Shown here: one piece after another, positions 1 to 4,928 of the stretch
How positions within the stretch are numbered: the first letter of the stretch is position 1
Layout of the letters: each line of letters opens with the position of its first letter
Notes under the pieces: model-generated
What the model was told of the DNA's origin: nothing
What the model saw: the letters and a program-made list of their open reading frames with translations, nothing else
Database searches by the model: none
Virus genome (UHGV): UHGV-2078699
Length of the DNA: 4,928 nucleotides
Direction: 5' to 3' (one strand)
Origin: a virus
Program-made: the position numbers and the translations under genes

Positions 1-23
1 GGATTCGATTTTCGCAGCGGCCT

Positions 24-56
24 TTTCAACATAACGAGTCGTACATTATGCGCACC
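24..56 (-). other. dif-like XerC/XerD recombination site (putative prophage attachment junction), atypical spacing
   Basis: The minus strand reads GGTGCGCATAA-TGTACGACTCG-TTATGTTGAAA. The first 11 nt are identical to the XerC arm of E. coli dif (GGTGCGCATAATGTATATTATGTTAAAT, recalled from memory). The last 11 nt match the XerD arm TTATGTTAAAT at 9 of 11 positions. The two arms are separated by 11 nt rather than the canonical 6. Confidence 0.4.
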
Positions 57-94
57 AATGGTAAGGATGGCGGGAACTGGCGTTACCGGTGCCG

Positions 95-328
95 TCATTG
101 GTCACAGACCGTAATCCACTGGCCCAGGACGTCTTTCAGGCAATGTTGGCATAAATCCAGTTTTAAGCGATTACTGTCACCAAAAATTGAACCGTATCCA
201 GCTAAGTGATTAACAGACAGAAACTCATTGAACTCAATGTCATCTACCACCGTCTTCGCATGGCGACCACAGCGATCGCAGGTCTTCGCACATAACATTA
301 CAGTATCGCTGGATGTGAAAAATTGCAT
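95..328 (-). CDS. hypothetical small Cys-rich protein, zinc-ribbon-like (77 aa)
   Basis: ORF with ATG at 328..326 preceded by a strong SD (GAGGAGA, 5-nt spacer). The protein has C13-x3-C17-x2-C20 and C61-x2-C64 plus C75, i.e. two CxxC knuckles about 40 residues apart, typical of a zinc ribbon. A loose resemblance to YgiT/MqsA-type zinc-finger domains is from memory only. Confidence 0.5.
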   Translation of the reverse strand: MQFFTSSDTVMLCAKTCDRCGRHAKTVVDDIEFNEFLSVNHLAGYGSIFGDSNRLKLDLCQHCLKDVLGQWITVCDQ

Positions 329-399
329 TTTATCTCCTCGTAATGCTGCCGCGCCGAATCAGCAATAACGCTAAAAAAACAGAATTGTTCGGCTTGGCC

Positions 400-444
400 A
401 ACCCCTGACACTAACAAAAGCAAGTTTTGTCATTGTCAGGGGTT
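400..444. promoter_or_regulatory. 45-nt near-perfect inverted repeat (stem-loop) between the two small ORFs
   Basis: AACCCCTGACA (400..410) pairs with TGTCAGGGGTT (434..444), and ACAAAA (414..419) pairs with TTTTGT (425..430), around a 5-nt loop GCAAG with a 3-nt internal mismatch. On the minus strand it sits 1 nt after the ORF 446..754 stop codon. A T7 run follows about 20 nt further downstream, so it is not a canonical intrinsic terminator. Confidence 0.5.
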
Positions 445-445
445 A

Positions 446-754
446 TCATATAAACCAATAGACCGTCCTTACGCCATTCTGGTTATCAATAACATAGCCG
501 CATTGTTTCCTTAAAAATTCTTCTGCTAAATCAATGGCTTTTACAGAAATCTCATAAGAAGGAAGTAAAGTGTATCCTTTCCCTTCACTGGCAGCTGCTT
601 TGATCGCATCCAGAGTATTATCAATCAGTAACAGAGCAAGTGATGCTTCATTTACCTGAGCCGAAGAACTTCTGGCTGCAAGTGTCATTGTTTTTGCTTC
701 TTCCGCTGTAATCGTTCGTTCTGCCAGAGCAGATAAAATCCCATAAGAATCCAT
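446..754 (-). CDS. hypothetical protein (102 aa), unknown function
   Basis: ORF with ATG at 754..752 and a GGGG-containing SD 7 nt upstream. The protein is Ala/Leu-rich and helical-looking at the N-terminus with a beta-like C-terminus, and has no recognisable signal peptide or TM segment. I recognise no family. Confidence 0.45.
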   Translation of the reverse strand: MDSYGILSALAERTITAEEAKTMTLAARSSSAQVNEASLALLLIDNTLDAIKAAASEGKGYTLLPSYEISVKAIDLAEEFLRKQCGYVIDNQNGVRTVYWFI

Positions 755-774
755 TAGTTACCCCAATCAATAAT

Positions 775-834
775 GTCCATTTGATGGATAGCGAGCAGGG
801 CTTACGCACCTACCCGCTATCCATCAAAGTGGAC
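775..834. promoter_or_regulatory. long hairpin overlapping the gene IV stop codon (candidate terminator / packaging-signal-like element)
   Basis: GTCCATTTGATGGATAGCG (775..793) pairs with CGCTATCCATCAAAGTGGAC (815..834), giving a 19-bp stem with one bulged G and a 21-nt loop. The gene IV stop codon (824..826) lies inside the right arm. In Ff phages the packaging-signal hairpin begins immediately after gene IV. Confidence 0.45.
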
Positions 835-2089
835 GAATGATATGTGCTGTAAGCAAAATATACATAATACGCTGTTCATTGCTGTCTGCCTTGCTACTGA
901 AAATCCAGCCTATAAGAGGAATTTTACTTATAACTGGAACTGAACGCTCGGCATTGCTGAACGATGAATCGATAAGCCCCCCCAATAACAACGTCTGACC
1001 ATCCTTAATCTGGACTGTCGTCTGAATCTGGCGCTGATTAGTAATAATATCGGATGCCTGATCATCATTGCTGATTGAATCAGCGCGAGTGTCGATAGTC
1101 AGAACTAGTTGCCCGTTACCCATGACAACAGGCGTTACCTTGAGAGAAACGCCAACATCATGACGCTCGATAGTCTGAAACGGATTATTTACCCCGGCAG
1201 ATTCGCCCGTTACCTTTCCGGTGATAAACGGCACATTCTTACCTACGGAAATGTAACCAGTCTGACCAGACTGAGTAAGAATACGCGGCGTTGAAATCAC
1301 CTTAGAGCGTGAATTACTCTGGACAGCACGCAGAGACAGCGCCAACACGTTACCATCAAAAATACCAAAAGAACCGCCCGCCGTAGAAAGAGCGCTACCC
1401 AGTGCAGAAGTATTAAAGCCCCCCGCAACCTTATGACCGGATGCAGAACCTGCCGCAAACGATAAATCAACGCCATCAGACAAGCTGGTTTCAAACATCA
1501 GCGACTGAATGAGAACCTGATCGCGGGCAACATCCACAGAATTGATAAAATCGGACAGAACCGGCAGCAGCTCGTCAGGCGCAGAAACAATCAGCGAGTT
1601 ATTGCCTGGATAATCCACGACATTACCACCACCATTAGAATCAAGATAAATTTTAATCAGTTGCTGAACATCGGACGATCTAACTTTTGTCAGCTTAAAA
1701 TTTCTGACCGTAAGCGCCACAGGTACTGGCTGGTAAGATGGCTCAGAAGGAAAAGTATCATAAGACTGGTTATCAGAATCATCGGAATCCGAAACCATCT
1801 GTGAAGGTAATTTAGACGGCAAAGAGACTACCGCAGGATTGCCAGAAAGCATGACAAAACCGTTAGCATTCAGAACAGACTTAAAGAAATCATCAATATT
1901 TGTTGGATTAACATCAGCATTAAATACGGTTACGTTTCCTTTAATATCAGGATTAACAATAACAGGCTTGCCAGTTTTTGAAGAATACCACTGAACAAAT
2001 GAGCGAACAGATGAATTATTTAAATTAACAGTTTCAGCAGAAACGCAGAATGAATAGGCAAATAAAAAAGCAACAATAACAGAGCGCAT
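824..2089 (-). CDS. gIV: filamentous-phage gene IV protein (pIV outer-membrane secretin)
   Basis: The translation aligns along its length with M13/fd pIV as recalled, e.g. VPFITGxVTGESAxVNNPFQTIER, DGQTLLLGGL, IPLIG..FSS and a C-terminal ...RPL. The ATG at 2089..2087 is preceded by AGGAG and gives an N-terminal signal peptide MRSVIVAFLFAYSFCVSA. The 31 codons the ORF track adds upstream (to 2182) overlap the gene I 3' end and are rejected as the start. Confidence 0.92.
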   Translation of the reverse strand: MRSVIVAFLFAYSFCVSAETVNLNNSSVRSFVQWYSSKTGKPVIVNPDIKGNVTVFNADVNPTNIDDFFKSVLNANGFVMLSGNPAVVSLPSKLPSQMVSDSDDSDNQSYDTFPSEPSYQPVPVALTVRNFKLTKVRSSDVQQLIKIYLDSNGGGNVVDYPGNNSLIVSAPDELLPVLSDFINSVDVARDQVLIQSLMFETSLSDGVDLSFAAGSASGHKVAGGFNTSALGSALSTAGGSFGIFDGNVLALSLRAVQSNSRSKVISTPRILTQSGQTGYISVGKNVPFITGKVTGESAGVNNPFQTIERHDVGVSLKVTPVVMGNGQLVLTIDTRADSISNDDQASDIITNQRQIQTTVQIKDGQTLLLGGLIDSSFSNAERSVPVISKIPLIGWIFSSKADSNEQRIMYILLTAHIIRPL

Positions 2090-2096
2090 AATAATA

Positions 2097-2471
2097 TTAC
2101 TCCTGACAGGTAACAGTCTGTAAATAACGGCCTTTTCTAATAACAACACGACAGGCATCTTTAATATCAACGGAATAACCATCTTTAATCAAATCAAAAT
2201 ACTGATATTTCATACCTTTTGCATCAACAAACGTAACGGAAACGTCAAAGCCAAGTTGTGAAAAAGAATTAATAGAAAGTCGGGGTAAGTCACTGGACGA
2301 ATCAGGCGTTACCGCCCTCGCCTGTTCAGCATAAGCAGATTTAATAGCTGAGATTTCATCAACATTCTTTCCAGACTGGAGCCAGAAACCAAACGCAAGC
2401 CCCAGCGCCAAAAAAGAAAGCATTAATATAAGACGGTTCGATTTGCGAAAATAAATTTTAGTGAGGCGCAT
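2097..2471 (-). CDS. gXI: putative gene XI protein (pXI / pI*), in-frame internal start within gene I
   Basis: An in-frame ATG at 2471..2469 is codon 241 of gene I, the same residue index as the pXI start in M13 as recalled (MKLTKIY there, MRLTKIYF here). It lies just N-terminal to the TM segment, with an AGAGGA SD-like element about 12 nt upstream. Confidence 0.5.
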   Translation of the reverse strand: MRLTKIYFRKSNRLILMLSFLALGLAFGFWLQSGKNVDEISAIKSAYAEQARAVTPDSSSDLPRLSINSFSQLGFDVSVTFVDAKGMKYQYFDLIKDGYSVDIKDACRVVIRKGRYLQTVTCQE

Positions 2472-3191
2472 ATAATAATTAAATCCTCTGTGAACAGAAA
2501 ATTGACCGTGCGTGATAAATGGTGGCAAAAGCGAAAATGCGCCATGAGGATAATTATCTGTGAACGCTTGTTTGGTATTGTAAGCAGAATAAAGAGATTT
2601 TCCTGTATATATCCATTTATCAACAGTGATTGAATTAACATTATCACCATATTTGACAATGCCAAAGTGTACCTTTGGTAAAGAAAATCTCGCTCCTGAA
2701 ACCAAATTCATAATGGAGCCAACAAAAGGAATGTTTAATTTATCTGAACGGCGACAATAAACAACATGCTCAGCAAGCGCCAGACGAGCTTGCTTATCCA
2801 TTATCGAAATATCCTGAATCAAAAATATAATATCCCAGCCTAATTTTCTGGCATGTAAAAACCAGTCAATAACAGGTTGTCTGTCTTTATCACCCCATGA
2901 GCGGGAATTAAACCAAGTACCACATTCATCAAGTACAAGGAGGCCATTACGGGATTCATCGTAAGATGTATTCCCAATACCAATAGCAAGTAAATCATTT
3001 AATGAAGGCTTGTCAGGAATGCGAATAACGCGCGTTTTTTTCGCATAACGCCCAACCATAGGCATATTATGCAATTTAAGATCAAGATTAGTGGCAACAG
3101 GACAACCCTTAGCAAGTCTTTCCTGTATTCTGGAAACACTAACAAGTGTCTTGCCTGAGCCTAATTTGCCTGTTACTACATAAACCGCCAT
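2097..3191 (-). CDS. gI: filamentous-phage gene I protein (pI assembly ATPase, Zot-like)
   Basis: N-terminus MAVYVVTGKLGSGKTLVSV with Walker A GKLGSGKT and Walker B-like LLVLDECGTWF. Roughly 70% identity by eye to M13 pI as recalled (IDWFLHARKLGWDIIFL, ALAEHVVYCRR). A single TM segment LILMLSFLALGLAFGFWL lies near residue 255. The ATG at 3191..3189 directly follows the gene VI stop (TAAATG), with SD AGGGTGA. Confidence 0.95.
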   Translation of the reverse strand: MAVYVVTGKLGSGKTLVSVSRIQERLAKGCPVATNLDLKLHNMPMVGRYAKKTRVIRIPDKPSLNDLLAIGIGNTSYDESRNGLLVLDECGTWFNSRSWGDKDRQPVIDWFLHARKLGWDIIFLIQDISIMDKQARLALAEHVVYCRRSDKLNIPFVGSIMNLVSGARFSLPKVHFGIVKYGDNVNSITVDKWIYTGKSLYSAYNTKQAFTDNYPHGAFSLLPPFITHGQFSVHRGFNYYMRLTKIYFRKSNRLILMLSFLALGLAFGFWLQSGKNVDEISAIKSAYAEQARAVTPDSSSDLPRLSINSFSQLGFDVSVTFVDAKGMKYQYFDLIKDGYSVDIKDACRVVIRKGRYLQTVTCQE

Positions 3192-3533
3192 TTAAATCAC
3201 CCTGTTTGCATAATCAAGAAATTTTTGTTTTAAATCGAAAACAAAAACACTGATACGAGTAACCATAATAACGTTAACACACGCCTGAAAATGGTCAGGC
3301 AGTACAGACGCCATTAAATGGGAGAAATCAGCAGGTAAACCGTTGTACATGACCTCAGCAAGGTACTGCATTAAAAGCGTAACAGTTGTTGTAATTAATG
3401 CGACCAATGCAAAGGCGATTAATCCTGTTCTGGTAGCAAGTCGAGCTAAAAAACTCGCCACATAGCCAATAAACAAAGGAACAAGACCAATAAGAAAACG
3501 CAACAATGCAGGAATACCTAATAATAAAGGCAT
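3192..3533 (-). CDS. gVI: filamentous-phage gene VI protein (pVI minor coat protein)
   Basis: 113-aa hydrophobic protein MPLLLGIPALLRFL...FVFDLKQK, matching M13 pVI (MPVLLGIPLLLRFL...IFIFDVKQK, recalled). The ATG at 3533..3531 shares one nucleotide with the gene III stop (TGATG). The ORF track starts one codon earlier at a GTG, which I do not favour. Confidence 0.88.
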   Translation of the reverse strand: MPLLLGIPALLRFLIGLVPLFIGYVASFLARLATRTGLIAFALVALITTTVTLLMQYLAEVMYNGLPADFSHLMASVLPDHFQACVNVIMVTRISVFVFDLKQKFLDYANRVI

Positions 3534-4067
3534 CACTCACCCCCTTTGCGAAGCAATGAAGTTAAAGAAGTAAAGACATACCAGAACGTAAGGCAATAAA
3601 AAACCCATGAAAGAACATCTTTAATAGTCAGTAATTTATCGCAACCAATATCAATCTGATAAACCTCTCCGGGAAAAATAATAAAATCAGAGCAGCCGTT
3701 ACCATTGGGTAAATTAGGCAGCATAGCACCTTTATTTAAAAATGCTTCCCATAAAGCACCGTGAGAATCCTTTTCAATTCCCAATTCAGAATCAGCTAAA
3801 GTAGAAGCGCCATCTAATTCAGAGTCGCCCTTTCCATAACGAGAATCACCACCTGAAGGGTCAGCAAAACGGCCAGCCCCCCGCGTAAGATTGTTAATGG
3901 AATCGTCAAGACGATTTATATTATTCCTGGTTTGTTCATCGGCATTTTTTTTATCATCTGATGAAGTGTCTTTCTCCGTTAATTTATCATGAATATCGCT
4001 GGCTATTTTGGGTGAAGCACCTTCGATCGCAGACTGAATATCACCTTTAGAAAGACTGGAACCACTA
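3533..4067 (-). pseudogene. gIII: gene III (pIII) C-terminal fragment, interrupted by IS630 insertion
   Basis: The C-terminal roughly 175 codons resemble the pIII linker and C-terminal domain (NGNG, IDIGCDK vs M13 SIDCDK, hydrophobic anchor YVFTSL, terminal LLRKGGE vs ILRNKES). Upstream of about 4068 the frame continues into antisense IS630 sequence and the N1/N2 receptor-binding domains are absent. The 5' boundary is approximate, about 5 nt either way. Confidence 0.8.
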
Positions 4068-4928
4068 AATAGCTGCGCGGAATAGTAGATCACTGAAAGG
4101 GAACTCAGCCCGGATTGTGCGATCTGATCAATCGCCAAACCAACCAAAATCACCAACCGGACTGAGCGATGCCGATCATAGTACCAATACCCCGTGGCGA
4201 ACGACGCCTGATGCAGAAAGCTATTCATAAAACGCGTGATAAAAATCATGCCCGCAGACTCACGGCCATGCTGATGCTTCATCGGGGTGAACGGGTCAGC
4301 GATGTTGCCAGAACTCTCTGTTGTGCCCGTTCATCCGTTGGTCGCTGGATTAACTGGTTTACGCACTCAGGTATTGAAGGCCTGAAATCCTTACCCGCAG
4401 GGCGCTCCCGACGCTGGCCTTTTGAACATATCTGCACCCTGTTACGTGAGCTGATAAAGCATTCTCCCGGCGATTTTGGTTATCAACGTTCACGCTGGAG
4501 CACCGAATTACTGGCAATAAAAATCAATGAGATAACCGGTTGCCAGTTACATGCAGGAACCGTTCGCCGCTGGTTGCCATCTGCGGGGCTTGTATGGCGC
4601 AGGGCCGCGCCAACTCTGCGTATCCGTGACCCACATAAAGATGAAAAGATGGCGGTAATCCACAAAGCGCTGGATGAATGCAGCGCAGAGCATCCGGTAT
4701 TTTATGAAGATGAAGTGGATATCCACCTTAATCCTAAAATCGGTGCGGACTGGCAGTTGCGCGGACAGCAGAAACGGGTAGTGACGCCGGGGCAGAACGA
4801 AAAATACTATCTGGCCGGCGCACTGCACAGTGGCACGGGTAAAGTCAGCTACGTGGGCGGCAACAGCAAAAGTTCAGCGCTGTTTATCGCTCTGCTGAAG
4901 CACCTGAAAGCCACTTACCGGCGGGCGA
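4068..4928 (+). mobile_element. IS630-family insertion sequence, left end and most of transposase (partial; continues beyond window)
   Basis: The sequence encodes a transposase matching IS630 as I recall it. GC content rises sharply relative to the AT-rich phage genes (sampled 60-nt lines are about 33% GC in gene IV and about 70% in the transposase). The left boundary is placed after a CTA at 4065..4067, consistent with IS630 inserting at CTAG with TA duplication. The exact inverted-repeat end is not verified. Confidence 0.8.
4169..4928 (+). CDS. IS630-family transposase (Tc1/mariner-like DDE), 3' truncated by the window edge
   Basis: Plus-strand frame open from the ATG at 4169 to the end of the window (253 codons): MPIIVPIPRGERRLMQKAIHKTRDKNHARRLTAMLMLHRGERVSDVARTLCCARSSVGRWINWF (N-terminal HTH) ... 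DPHKDEKMAVIHKALDECSAEHPVFYEDEVDIHLNPKIGADWQLRGQQKRVVTPGQNEKYYLAGALHSGTGKVSYVGG. It is missing from the supplied ORF track, presumably because no stop codon falls inside the window. Confidence 0.9.
   Translation, partial: MPIIVPIPRGERRLMQKAIHKTRDKNHARRLTAMLMLHRGERVSDVARTLCCARSSVGRWINWFTHSGIEGLKSLPAGRSRRWPFEHICTLLRELIKHSPGDFGYQRSRWSTELLAIKINEITGCQLHAGTVRRWLPSAGLVWRRAAPTLRIRDPHKDEKMAVIHKALDECSAEHPVFYEDEVDIHLNPKIGADWQLRGQQKRVVTPGQNEKYYLAGALHSGTGKVSYVGGNSKSSALFIALLKHLKATYRRA

Follow-up and report, generated by a model that had tools for sequence, protein, structure and literature searches.

The assembly block of a filamentous prophage, very probably of the UPΦ type, with gene III interrupted by ISEc33

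A stretch of 4,928 nucleotides of the virus genome UHGV-2078699 (the whole of which is called here the window) carries on its minus strand, between positions 824 and 4067, a tightly packed and co-linear block of filamentous-phage (inovirus) genes in the order gIII (3' part)-gVI-gI(gXI)-gIV, with junction spacings of -1, 0 and +7 nt. This order had already been proposed by a model reading the raw sequence alone (the original prediction), and domain searches agree with it; an inovirus assembly module can be recognized from the bare letters. The region is very probably the assembly, export and tip block of a filamentous prophage that integrates at dif and belongs to the UPΦ type, a Lineavirus-like relative of the phages IKe and I2-2, and its gIII is split by an insertion sequence (IS) of the IS630 family.

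All genes of the block lie on the minus strand. The gene gIV (824-2089) encodes the outer-membrane secretin pIV, a protein of 421 amino acids with an N-terminal signal peptide, in which Pfam recognizes GspD N0, Secretin_N and Secretin, the N0, N3 and secretin domains expected of pIV in an Ff-type module. The gene gI (2097-3191) encodes the inner-membrane assembly ATPase pI (364 amino acids; Pfam Zot, E = 6e-41), whose Walker A motif is GKLGSGKT at residues 8-15 and whose Walker B motif is LLVLDE at residues 84-89. Comparison with PHROGs matched proteins of the window to 'protein I of M13' and 'protein IV of M13', and the blastp matches to f1 (E = 4e-144 for pI, 9e-143 for pIV) indicate homology far above chance. 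Within gI, an in-frame internal start at pI Met241 defines gXI (2097-2471), whose predicted product of 124 amino acids combines a basic amphipathic segment with a transmembrane helix and the periplasmic domain. In the Ff phages (M13, f1, fd) pXI initiates at pI Met241, and in a global alignment Met241 of the window pI stands exactly opposite Met241 of f1 pI, which suggests that the same start is used in this phage. The RefSeq copies have no annotation for gXI and give pI the name 'zonular occludens toxin domain-containing protein', a label that invites over-interpretation of pI as a toxin. The block is completed by gVI (3192-3533), encoding the minor tip protein pVI (113 amino acids; Pfam DUF5455), and by a 3' fragment of gIII (3533-4067), whose last 177 codons represent the whole C-terminal, virion-anchor domain of pIII.

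The four junction details given in the original prediction are all correct: the gIII stop and the gVI start overlap by 1 nt in TGATG (3535-3531, minus strand), the gVI stop directly abuts the gI start in TAAATG (3194-3189), a spacer of 7 nt (2096-2090) separates the gI stop from the gIV ATG (2089), with a GGAG 11 nt upstream of this ATG, and codon 241 of gI is a Met, the predicted gXI start. The accompanying claim that these junctions mirror those of Ff holds only loosely, as f1 has a 2-nt gap between gIII and gVI and a 23-nt overlap of gI and gIV, the 1-nt gIII/gVI overlap being instead that of IKe and PEar1. A scan for promoters and terminators was uninformative: sites resembling either were scarcer than in shuffled sequence.

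From a comparative perspective, all the morphogenesis proteins of the window are nearer to those of IKe, I2-2 and PEar1 (52-73% identity) than to those of f1 (35-54%), which bears out the expectation of an IKe/I2-2-like lineage distinct from Ff. The identity of pI is 66% with IKe, 65% with I2-2 (65-66% over IKe, I2-2 and PEar1) and 54% with f1; that of pIV is 71% with IKe, 73% with I2-2 (71-73% over the same three phages) and 51% with f1; and that of pVI is 52% with IKe, 56% with PEar1 and 35% with f1. The C-terminal domain of pIII aligns across its full length with IKe, PEar1 and I2-2 (53-54%) and across only 58 residues with f1 (36%), in keeping with the earlier remark that this domain is more divergent than pI or pIV. 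The by-eye estimate of about 70% identity between pI and M13 pI was too high: f1 pI is 72% identical only within residues 1-180, and the value falls to 47% in residues 181-240 and to 31% in residues 241-364, the pXI portion. It was probably the ATPase core, residues 1-180, that caught the earlier reader's eye. At the nucleotide level, PEar, IKe and I2-2 rank above If1 and f1 in the phage collection; identity to the Lineavirus relatives is about 67-69% across 46-57% of the window, and blastn against f1 covers 18% of the window at about 70% identity.

The gIV stop codon is overlapped by a hairpin of 60 nt (775-834, minus strand; folding free energy, ΔG, -24.5 kcal/mol, z-score -8.5), the packaging (morphogenetic) signal. 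Its apex, GGGTAGGTGCG..AGCCCTGC, is invariant among the window, PEar1 and the morphogenetic signals annotated in IKe and I2-2, and the lower stem differs in sequence among the four with its pairing retained. In IKe and I2-2 the packaging hairpin likewise overlaps the gIV stop codon. The shared apex and the conserved pairing of the stem therefore place the packaging signal within the module.

The minus-strand block ends at position 4067 because another element begins there. The sequence from 4068 to 4928 is, on the plus strand, the left part of ISEc33 (IS630 family), with 99.9-100% nucleotide identity to copies annotated as 'IS630-like element ISEc33 family transposase'; the transposase ORF (open reading frame) begins at 4169, runs past the end of the window and shows N-terminal HTH_23/HTH_32 domains and a DDE_3 domain (Pfam), as in the IS630 family. 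The original prediction had rightly noted an IS630 element, although as a neighbour of the phage genes; the element interrupts gIII. The window diverges from the intact copy after ...GGAACCACTA, and position 4067 is thus the IS boundary rather than the point where gIII begins. Here the intact gene has CACTAGAGCC, and the window has CACTA and then the IS. The second junction, IS|TAGAGCC, is found in a metagenome contig of the European Nucleotide Archive (ENA; ERZ27238691 k111_8714, hereafter L086), which is 100% identical to window positions 1-4405 and holds both gIII halves and the full gene set. Compared with the intact gene, the two junctions place the insertion at a CTAG target with duplication of its TA (4066-4067), which is the signature of the IS630 family.

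The intact gIII encodes 405 amino acids in the copy of Escherichia coli 1368KP (L001). The 5' half, which in the interrupted gene lies beyond the IS, comprises 228 codons for the signal peptide, the G3P pilus-binding domain (residues 22-125) and the TolA-binding domain (residues 135-176). The IS has split pIII precisely where its Gly/Ser linker meets the C-terminal domain, and the fragment in the window is severed from the signal peptide, from the pilus-binding and TolA-binding domains and from the linker. No ISEc33 junction in gIII was found among 5,426 complete E. coli genomes. The rest of positions 1-4067 is 100% identical to intact prophages, and therefore the insertion is recent. An ORF of 249 amino acids (3533-4282, minus strand), which is a gene call in the ENA metagenome, was considered as a functional fusion and rejected as an annotation artefact, because the IS, read in antisense, supplies its first 72 codons, its ATG is not preceded by a Shine-Dalgarno sequence and it has no signal peptide.

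Positions 1-4067 of the window occur at 98.9-100% identity in 47 of the 5,426 complete E. coli genomes. In E. coli 1368KP a unit of 8,670 bp stands twice in tandem between a perfect dif site and hipA, and both the junction between the copies and the hipA end hold only an imperfect site, whose first 15 nt match dif. The unit contains gII, gV, gVII, gIX, gVIII, gIII, gVI, gI and gIV, followed by two ORFs of unknown function and by a few accessory ORFs on the opposite strand; gIX, of 31 amino acids (MYIVYFFGAYTFGFALFYAVGSFKSFSDRLM; L001 17059-17154, minus strand), is present and unannotated in the RefSeq copies. Moreover, a circular Salmonella record of 7,938 bp (episome) represents the same phage, with identical proteins from the two ORFs after gIV. 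The enterobacterial residence foreseen in the original prediction is thereby confirmed by the presence of the same DNA in 47 complete E. coli chromosomes and on a Salmonella episome, and the upstream genes II, V, VII, IX and VIII, as well as the 5' half of III, are present in the intact copies and in L086. Its description of an Ff/IKe-like module is right for morphogenesis and does not extend to replication, since gII and gV are CUS-1/YpfΦ-like and, more distantly, I2-2-like, rather than IKe- or Ff-like.

The other end of the window, positions 1-59, is an arm of the phage attachment site attP. It includes an imperfect dif-like site (29-56), in which the 15 nt at 42-56 (TACATTATGCGCACC) are the same as those that end the XerC arm of dif in E. 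coli and all 8 mismatches to dif lie outside these 15 nt. The same arm sequence is found between the tandem copies and beside hipA in L001. The full attP (L086 4335-4460) is an imperfect palindrome of about 100 nt with two inverted dif-like sites, which folds on the viral strand with a ΔG of -31.2 and a z-score of -7.5. Positions 1-59 are a phage-phage junction, as in tandem copies or in a circular replicative form, and not a chromosome junction; a second copy of the prophage is therefore possible.

The way in which these components may work can be outlined from homology with Ff and IKe, on which all the steps are modelled, the direct evidence being the identity and integrity of gI/gXI, gIV, gVI and the hairpin, and the split of gIII. 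In this scheme, pI and the internally initiated pXI would form an ATPase complex in the inner membrane, which would dock on the channel of the pIV secretin in the outer membrane to give a trans-envelope machine. The hairpin at 775-834, after gIV, would mark the pV-coated single strand for assembly, pV would be replaced by pVIII during extrusion of the filament, and pIII and pVI would cap the end of assembly and free the virion. In Ff phages that lack pIII, filaments are not released and stay attached to the cell. Since the ORF of the C-terminal domain has no signal peptide and the N-terminal half has no membrane anchor, the copy in the window is predicted to be gIII-null and to need pIII from a sibling copy; alone, it would be expected neither to release particles nor to make infectious ones unless a sibling supplies pIII. 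The split gene would amount to a clean null allele of gIII that arose naturally in a UPΦ-type phage.

The UPΦ viruses (reference UPΦ901), the group to which the prophage is assigned, have core genes about 70% identical to those of IKe/I2-2 (Shapiro and Putonti, 2020; Virus Evol 6:veaa030; PMC7307601). In these viruses genes II and V are >85% identical to those of YpfΦ and all others <20%, dif is at the start of the genome and tandem copies repeat only about 15 of its bases, two novel genes ('h1/h2') occupy places that are intergenic in IKe and M13, variable reverse-strand ORFs adjoin dif, and g3p carries a variable 'GGGES' repeat (PMC7307601). Core proteins are about 98% identical across hosts and accessory ORFs vary; the prevalence was 189 of 12,401 assemblies, the UPΦ901 reference has 7,560 bp, and the authors propose, provisionally, to place UPΦ in Lineavirus (PMC7307601). 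Six strain or accession names taken from the genome matches do not appear in its supplementary files. The corresponding traits are found here. The intact copies and L086 have the complete Ff/IKe core gene set, including the unannotated gIX; the integrated copies stand in tandem at dif, of which no more than about 15 nt recur at the junction from one copy to the next; and the intact g3p reads ...GGGESGGGESGGGSSGG..., with GGGES repeats. Compared with the dif prophage of UTI89 (O18:K1:H7), which served as stand-in for CUS-1, pII is 86% and pV 93% identical, the rest being absent or 27% identical. The counterparts of h1/h2 were recognized by the position and properties of the ORFs 446-754 and 95-328, not by sequence comparison. 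As for Lineavirus, the core proteins are closest to IKe/I2-2 and the intact copies have the IKe-type pIII architecture. Because all the published descriptive features match, we assign the prophage to UPΦ with high confidence. The lineage, which had been thought possibly novel, is then that of viruses already described in 2020 (PMC7307601); the prophage group is known and common, the sole peculiarity of this copy is a routine IS insertion, and the window adds one copy to a group already catalogued in >200 genomes.

Some points weigh against this assignment. It rests on published descriptive features rather than on direct alignment to UPΦ901, and the unit measures 8,670 bp against the 7,560 bp of that reference, a surplus that is explained by different accessory genes, a kind of variation that has been reported (PMC7307601). 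Furthermore, activity of the phage and synthesis of pXI are putative, and the source may hold another copy with an intact gIII, which neither the window nor the collapsed metagenome contig would reveal. The comparison by description, together with the differences in unit length and accessory genes, could also fit a Lineavirus-like lineage separate from the published UPΦ, of which this prophage would be a new member. This is improbable, as the prophage shows all the diagnostic traits that have been published, down to the idiosyncratic GGGES repeat and the 15 nt of dif that recur, and as both the host range (E. coli, Salmonella) and the prevalence (47 of 5,426 genomes, against 189 of 12,401 assemblies; PMC7307601) agree.

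The state of gIII in this UPΦ-type copy can be read in different ways. That ISEc33 sits at the exact boundary of linker and C-terminal domain in an otherwise pristine copy might be seen as a selected state and not an accident, which we consider quite unlikely. If it were true, the gIII-split UPΦ copy would no longer shed virions or express the envelope-perturbing, TolA-binding part of pIII, yet would retain the channel of pI/pXI and pIV, its accessory ORFs and the slot for cargo beside attP; it would then stand at the outset of the domestication of an inovirus, or be a copy within a tandem array that depends on a helper. Less probable still is that the window derives from a decaying or domesticated prophage remnant, in which the secretin/ATPase pair is kept for a host function: the IS does interrupt gIII, but the other 4,067 bp match intact tandem prophages at 100% identity and show no further lesion, and both gIII halves persist with the full gene set in the overlapping contig. 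A pristine remainder and the persistence of both halves therefore speak for a recent single hit and not for long-term domestication.

A different identity was considered at the beginning, the filamentous prophage CUS-1/YpfΦ of extraintestinal pathogenic E. coli and Yersinia pestis, which is about 8.7 kb long, stands in tandem at dif beside hipA and has two unknown ORFs adjoining its attachment site. The gII and gV identities of the intact copies to the UTI89 dif prophage, given above, are in line with it. For the block 824-4067, however, this first hypothesis was ruled out by the comparison with UTI89 and by the published record, and is now given hardly any probability: the window pI, pVI and pIII C-terminal domain have no blastp match to the UTI89 dif prophage (E<0.01), whose secretin is only 27% identical to the window pIV, over a partial length, and YpfΦ is <20% identical to UPΦ901 in all genes but II and V (PMC7307601). 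Conversely, neither the Zot and DUF2523 proteins nor the attachment protein encoded by the UTI89 dif prophage matched a protein of the window, which thus lacks the morphogenesis genes expected of CUS-1/YpfΦ, namely homologues of YPO2277-YPO2280 conserved at about 99%. A circular E. coli 'plasmid' of 9,565 bp (NZ_CP128883.1) carries CUS-1-type gII/gV and an attP arm, and is probably the replicative form of a filamentous phage deposited as a plasmid. Finally, a true Ff phage (M13/f1/fd), or contamination by a cloning vector or by phage display, which the gene order, the pXI start at codon 241 and the conserved first 180 residues of pI might bring to mind, can be dismissed on the identities to f1 of pI, pIV and pVI, the 58 alignable residues of the pIII C-terminal domain, the small blastn coverage, the 7-nt spacer in place of the gI/gIV overlap and the IKe-type domain order of the intact pIII.

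Beyond the assembly block, the window contains the two accessory ORFs that follow gIV, both on the minus strand and in the position of the UPΦ 'h1/h2' genes. The first (446-754) encodes 102 amino acids; the second (95-328) encodes 77 amino acids with two CxxC pairs, and matches the PHROG phrog_5435, of unknown function (E = 4.5e-46). Identical proteins for both ORFs are found in E. coli and Salmonella copies, that of the second being WP_001159442.1, encoded in copies of both hosts. In the search for a function of these ORFs, Pfam returned only sub-threshold noise, and PADLOC and a sequence search of the PDB returned nothing; a single-sequence structure model of the 77-residue protein was unusable, with a predicted local distance difference test (pLDDT) score of 43. 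Between the two ORFs lies a hairpin (400-444, minus strand) with arms of 20 nt that are 90% complementary (ΔG -18.6, z-score -7.2), which could be a terminator or an element of the minus-strand origin.

The slot between attP and the reverse-strand ORFs carries cargo that differs between copies (L001 19555-20626; L086 4447-5201; L087 2138-2872). In E. coli 1368KP it consists of a PD-(D/E)XK nuclease and a DUF6953 protein; in the metagenome contig L086, of an ORF of 159 amino acids and a zinc-ribbon ORF of 91 amino acids with weak Lar-like/PADLOC matches; and in the Salmonella episome, of a Doc-family toxin.

Relatives of the morphogenesis proteins, with 87-96% identity, were observed in two Erwiniaceae, Izhakiella australiensis (L005, a contig of 8,271 bp at 336x, which looks like a replicative form) and Rosenbergiella gaditana (L006). 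Neither the CUS-1-like gII/gV nor the two ORFs that follow gIV had a match in these two relatives, and the morphogenesis block is therefore joined to more than one kind of replication module: to a CUS-1-like gII/gV in E. coli and to a different replication region in Izhakiella and Rosenbergiella. The histories of the morphogenesis and replication blocks are clearly separate, which illustrates modular exchange among enterobacterial inoviruses. Inovirus DNA was also met on contigs assigned to unexpected hosts (L008, L007, L014 and L016): it is identical or near-identical on contigs assigned to Candidatus Nanosynbacter (100%) and to Paenibacillus (coverage 0.57), and distant (pI 54-56%) on contigs assigned to Actinomadura and SAR11. 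All of these most likely reflect mis-binning or contamination in public assemblies.

Among known systems, the closest resemblance is to the UPΦ viruses, with which the prophage shares an IKe/I2-2-like core (about 50-73% amino acid identity), two ORFs after gIV, tandem integration at dif, a gII/gV module in common with YpfΦ/CUS-1, GGGES repeats in g3p, variable ORFs beside attP and hosts that include E. coli and Salmonella; this copy differs in carrying ISEc33 within gIII, and the accessory ORFs in L086 and L001 are other than the three described for UPΦ901. The Lineavirus phages IKe and I2-2 and the Erwinia phages PEar1/2/4/6 are alike in gene order, in the 1-nt gIII/gVI overlap, in the apex of the packaging signal and in the order of the pIII domains, pilus-binding and then TolA-binding (seen in the intact copies, with a pIII identity of 50-55%), whereas they are non-integrating, lack attP/dif and have no counterpart of the two ORFs after gIV. 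In their replication genes, I2-2 has gII and gV that are 56% and 39% identical, while the gII of IKe is only 21-24% identical and similarity to its gV is undetectable. With CUS-1/YpfΦ there are in common XerCD integration at dif, tandem copies, a folded attP with two inverted dif-like sites and a gII/gV module 86-93% identical, and in the CUS-1-type prophage of UTI89 even the hybrid site GGTGCGCATAATGTACGACTCGTTATGT is identical; in contrast, the morphogenesis genes are essentially unrelated. The folded attP also recalls the attP hairpin of CTXΦ. The Ff phages (genus Inovirus) have the same III-VI-I(XI)-IV order, the Met241 start of pXI, the Walker motifs, the secretin domains and a hairpin after gIV, and differ in the 23-nt gI/gIV overlap, in the reversed order of the pIII domains (N1 TolA-binding, then N2 pilus-binding) and in not integrating. 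As regards ISEc33, the only difference from the known element is its site of insertion, within a phage gene.

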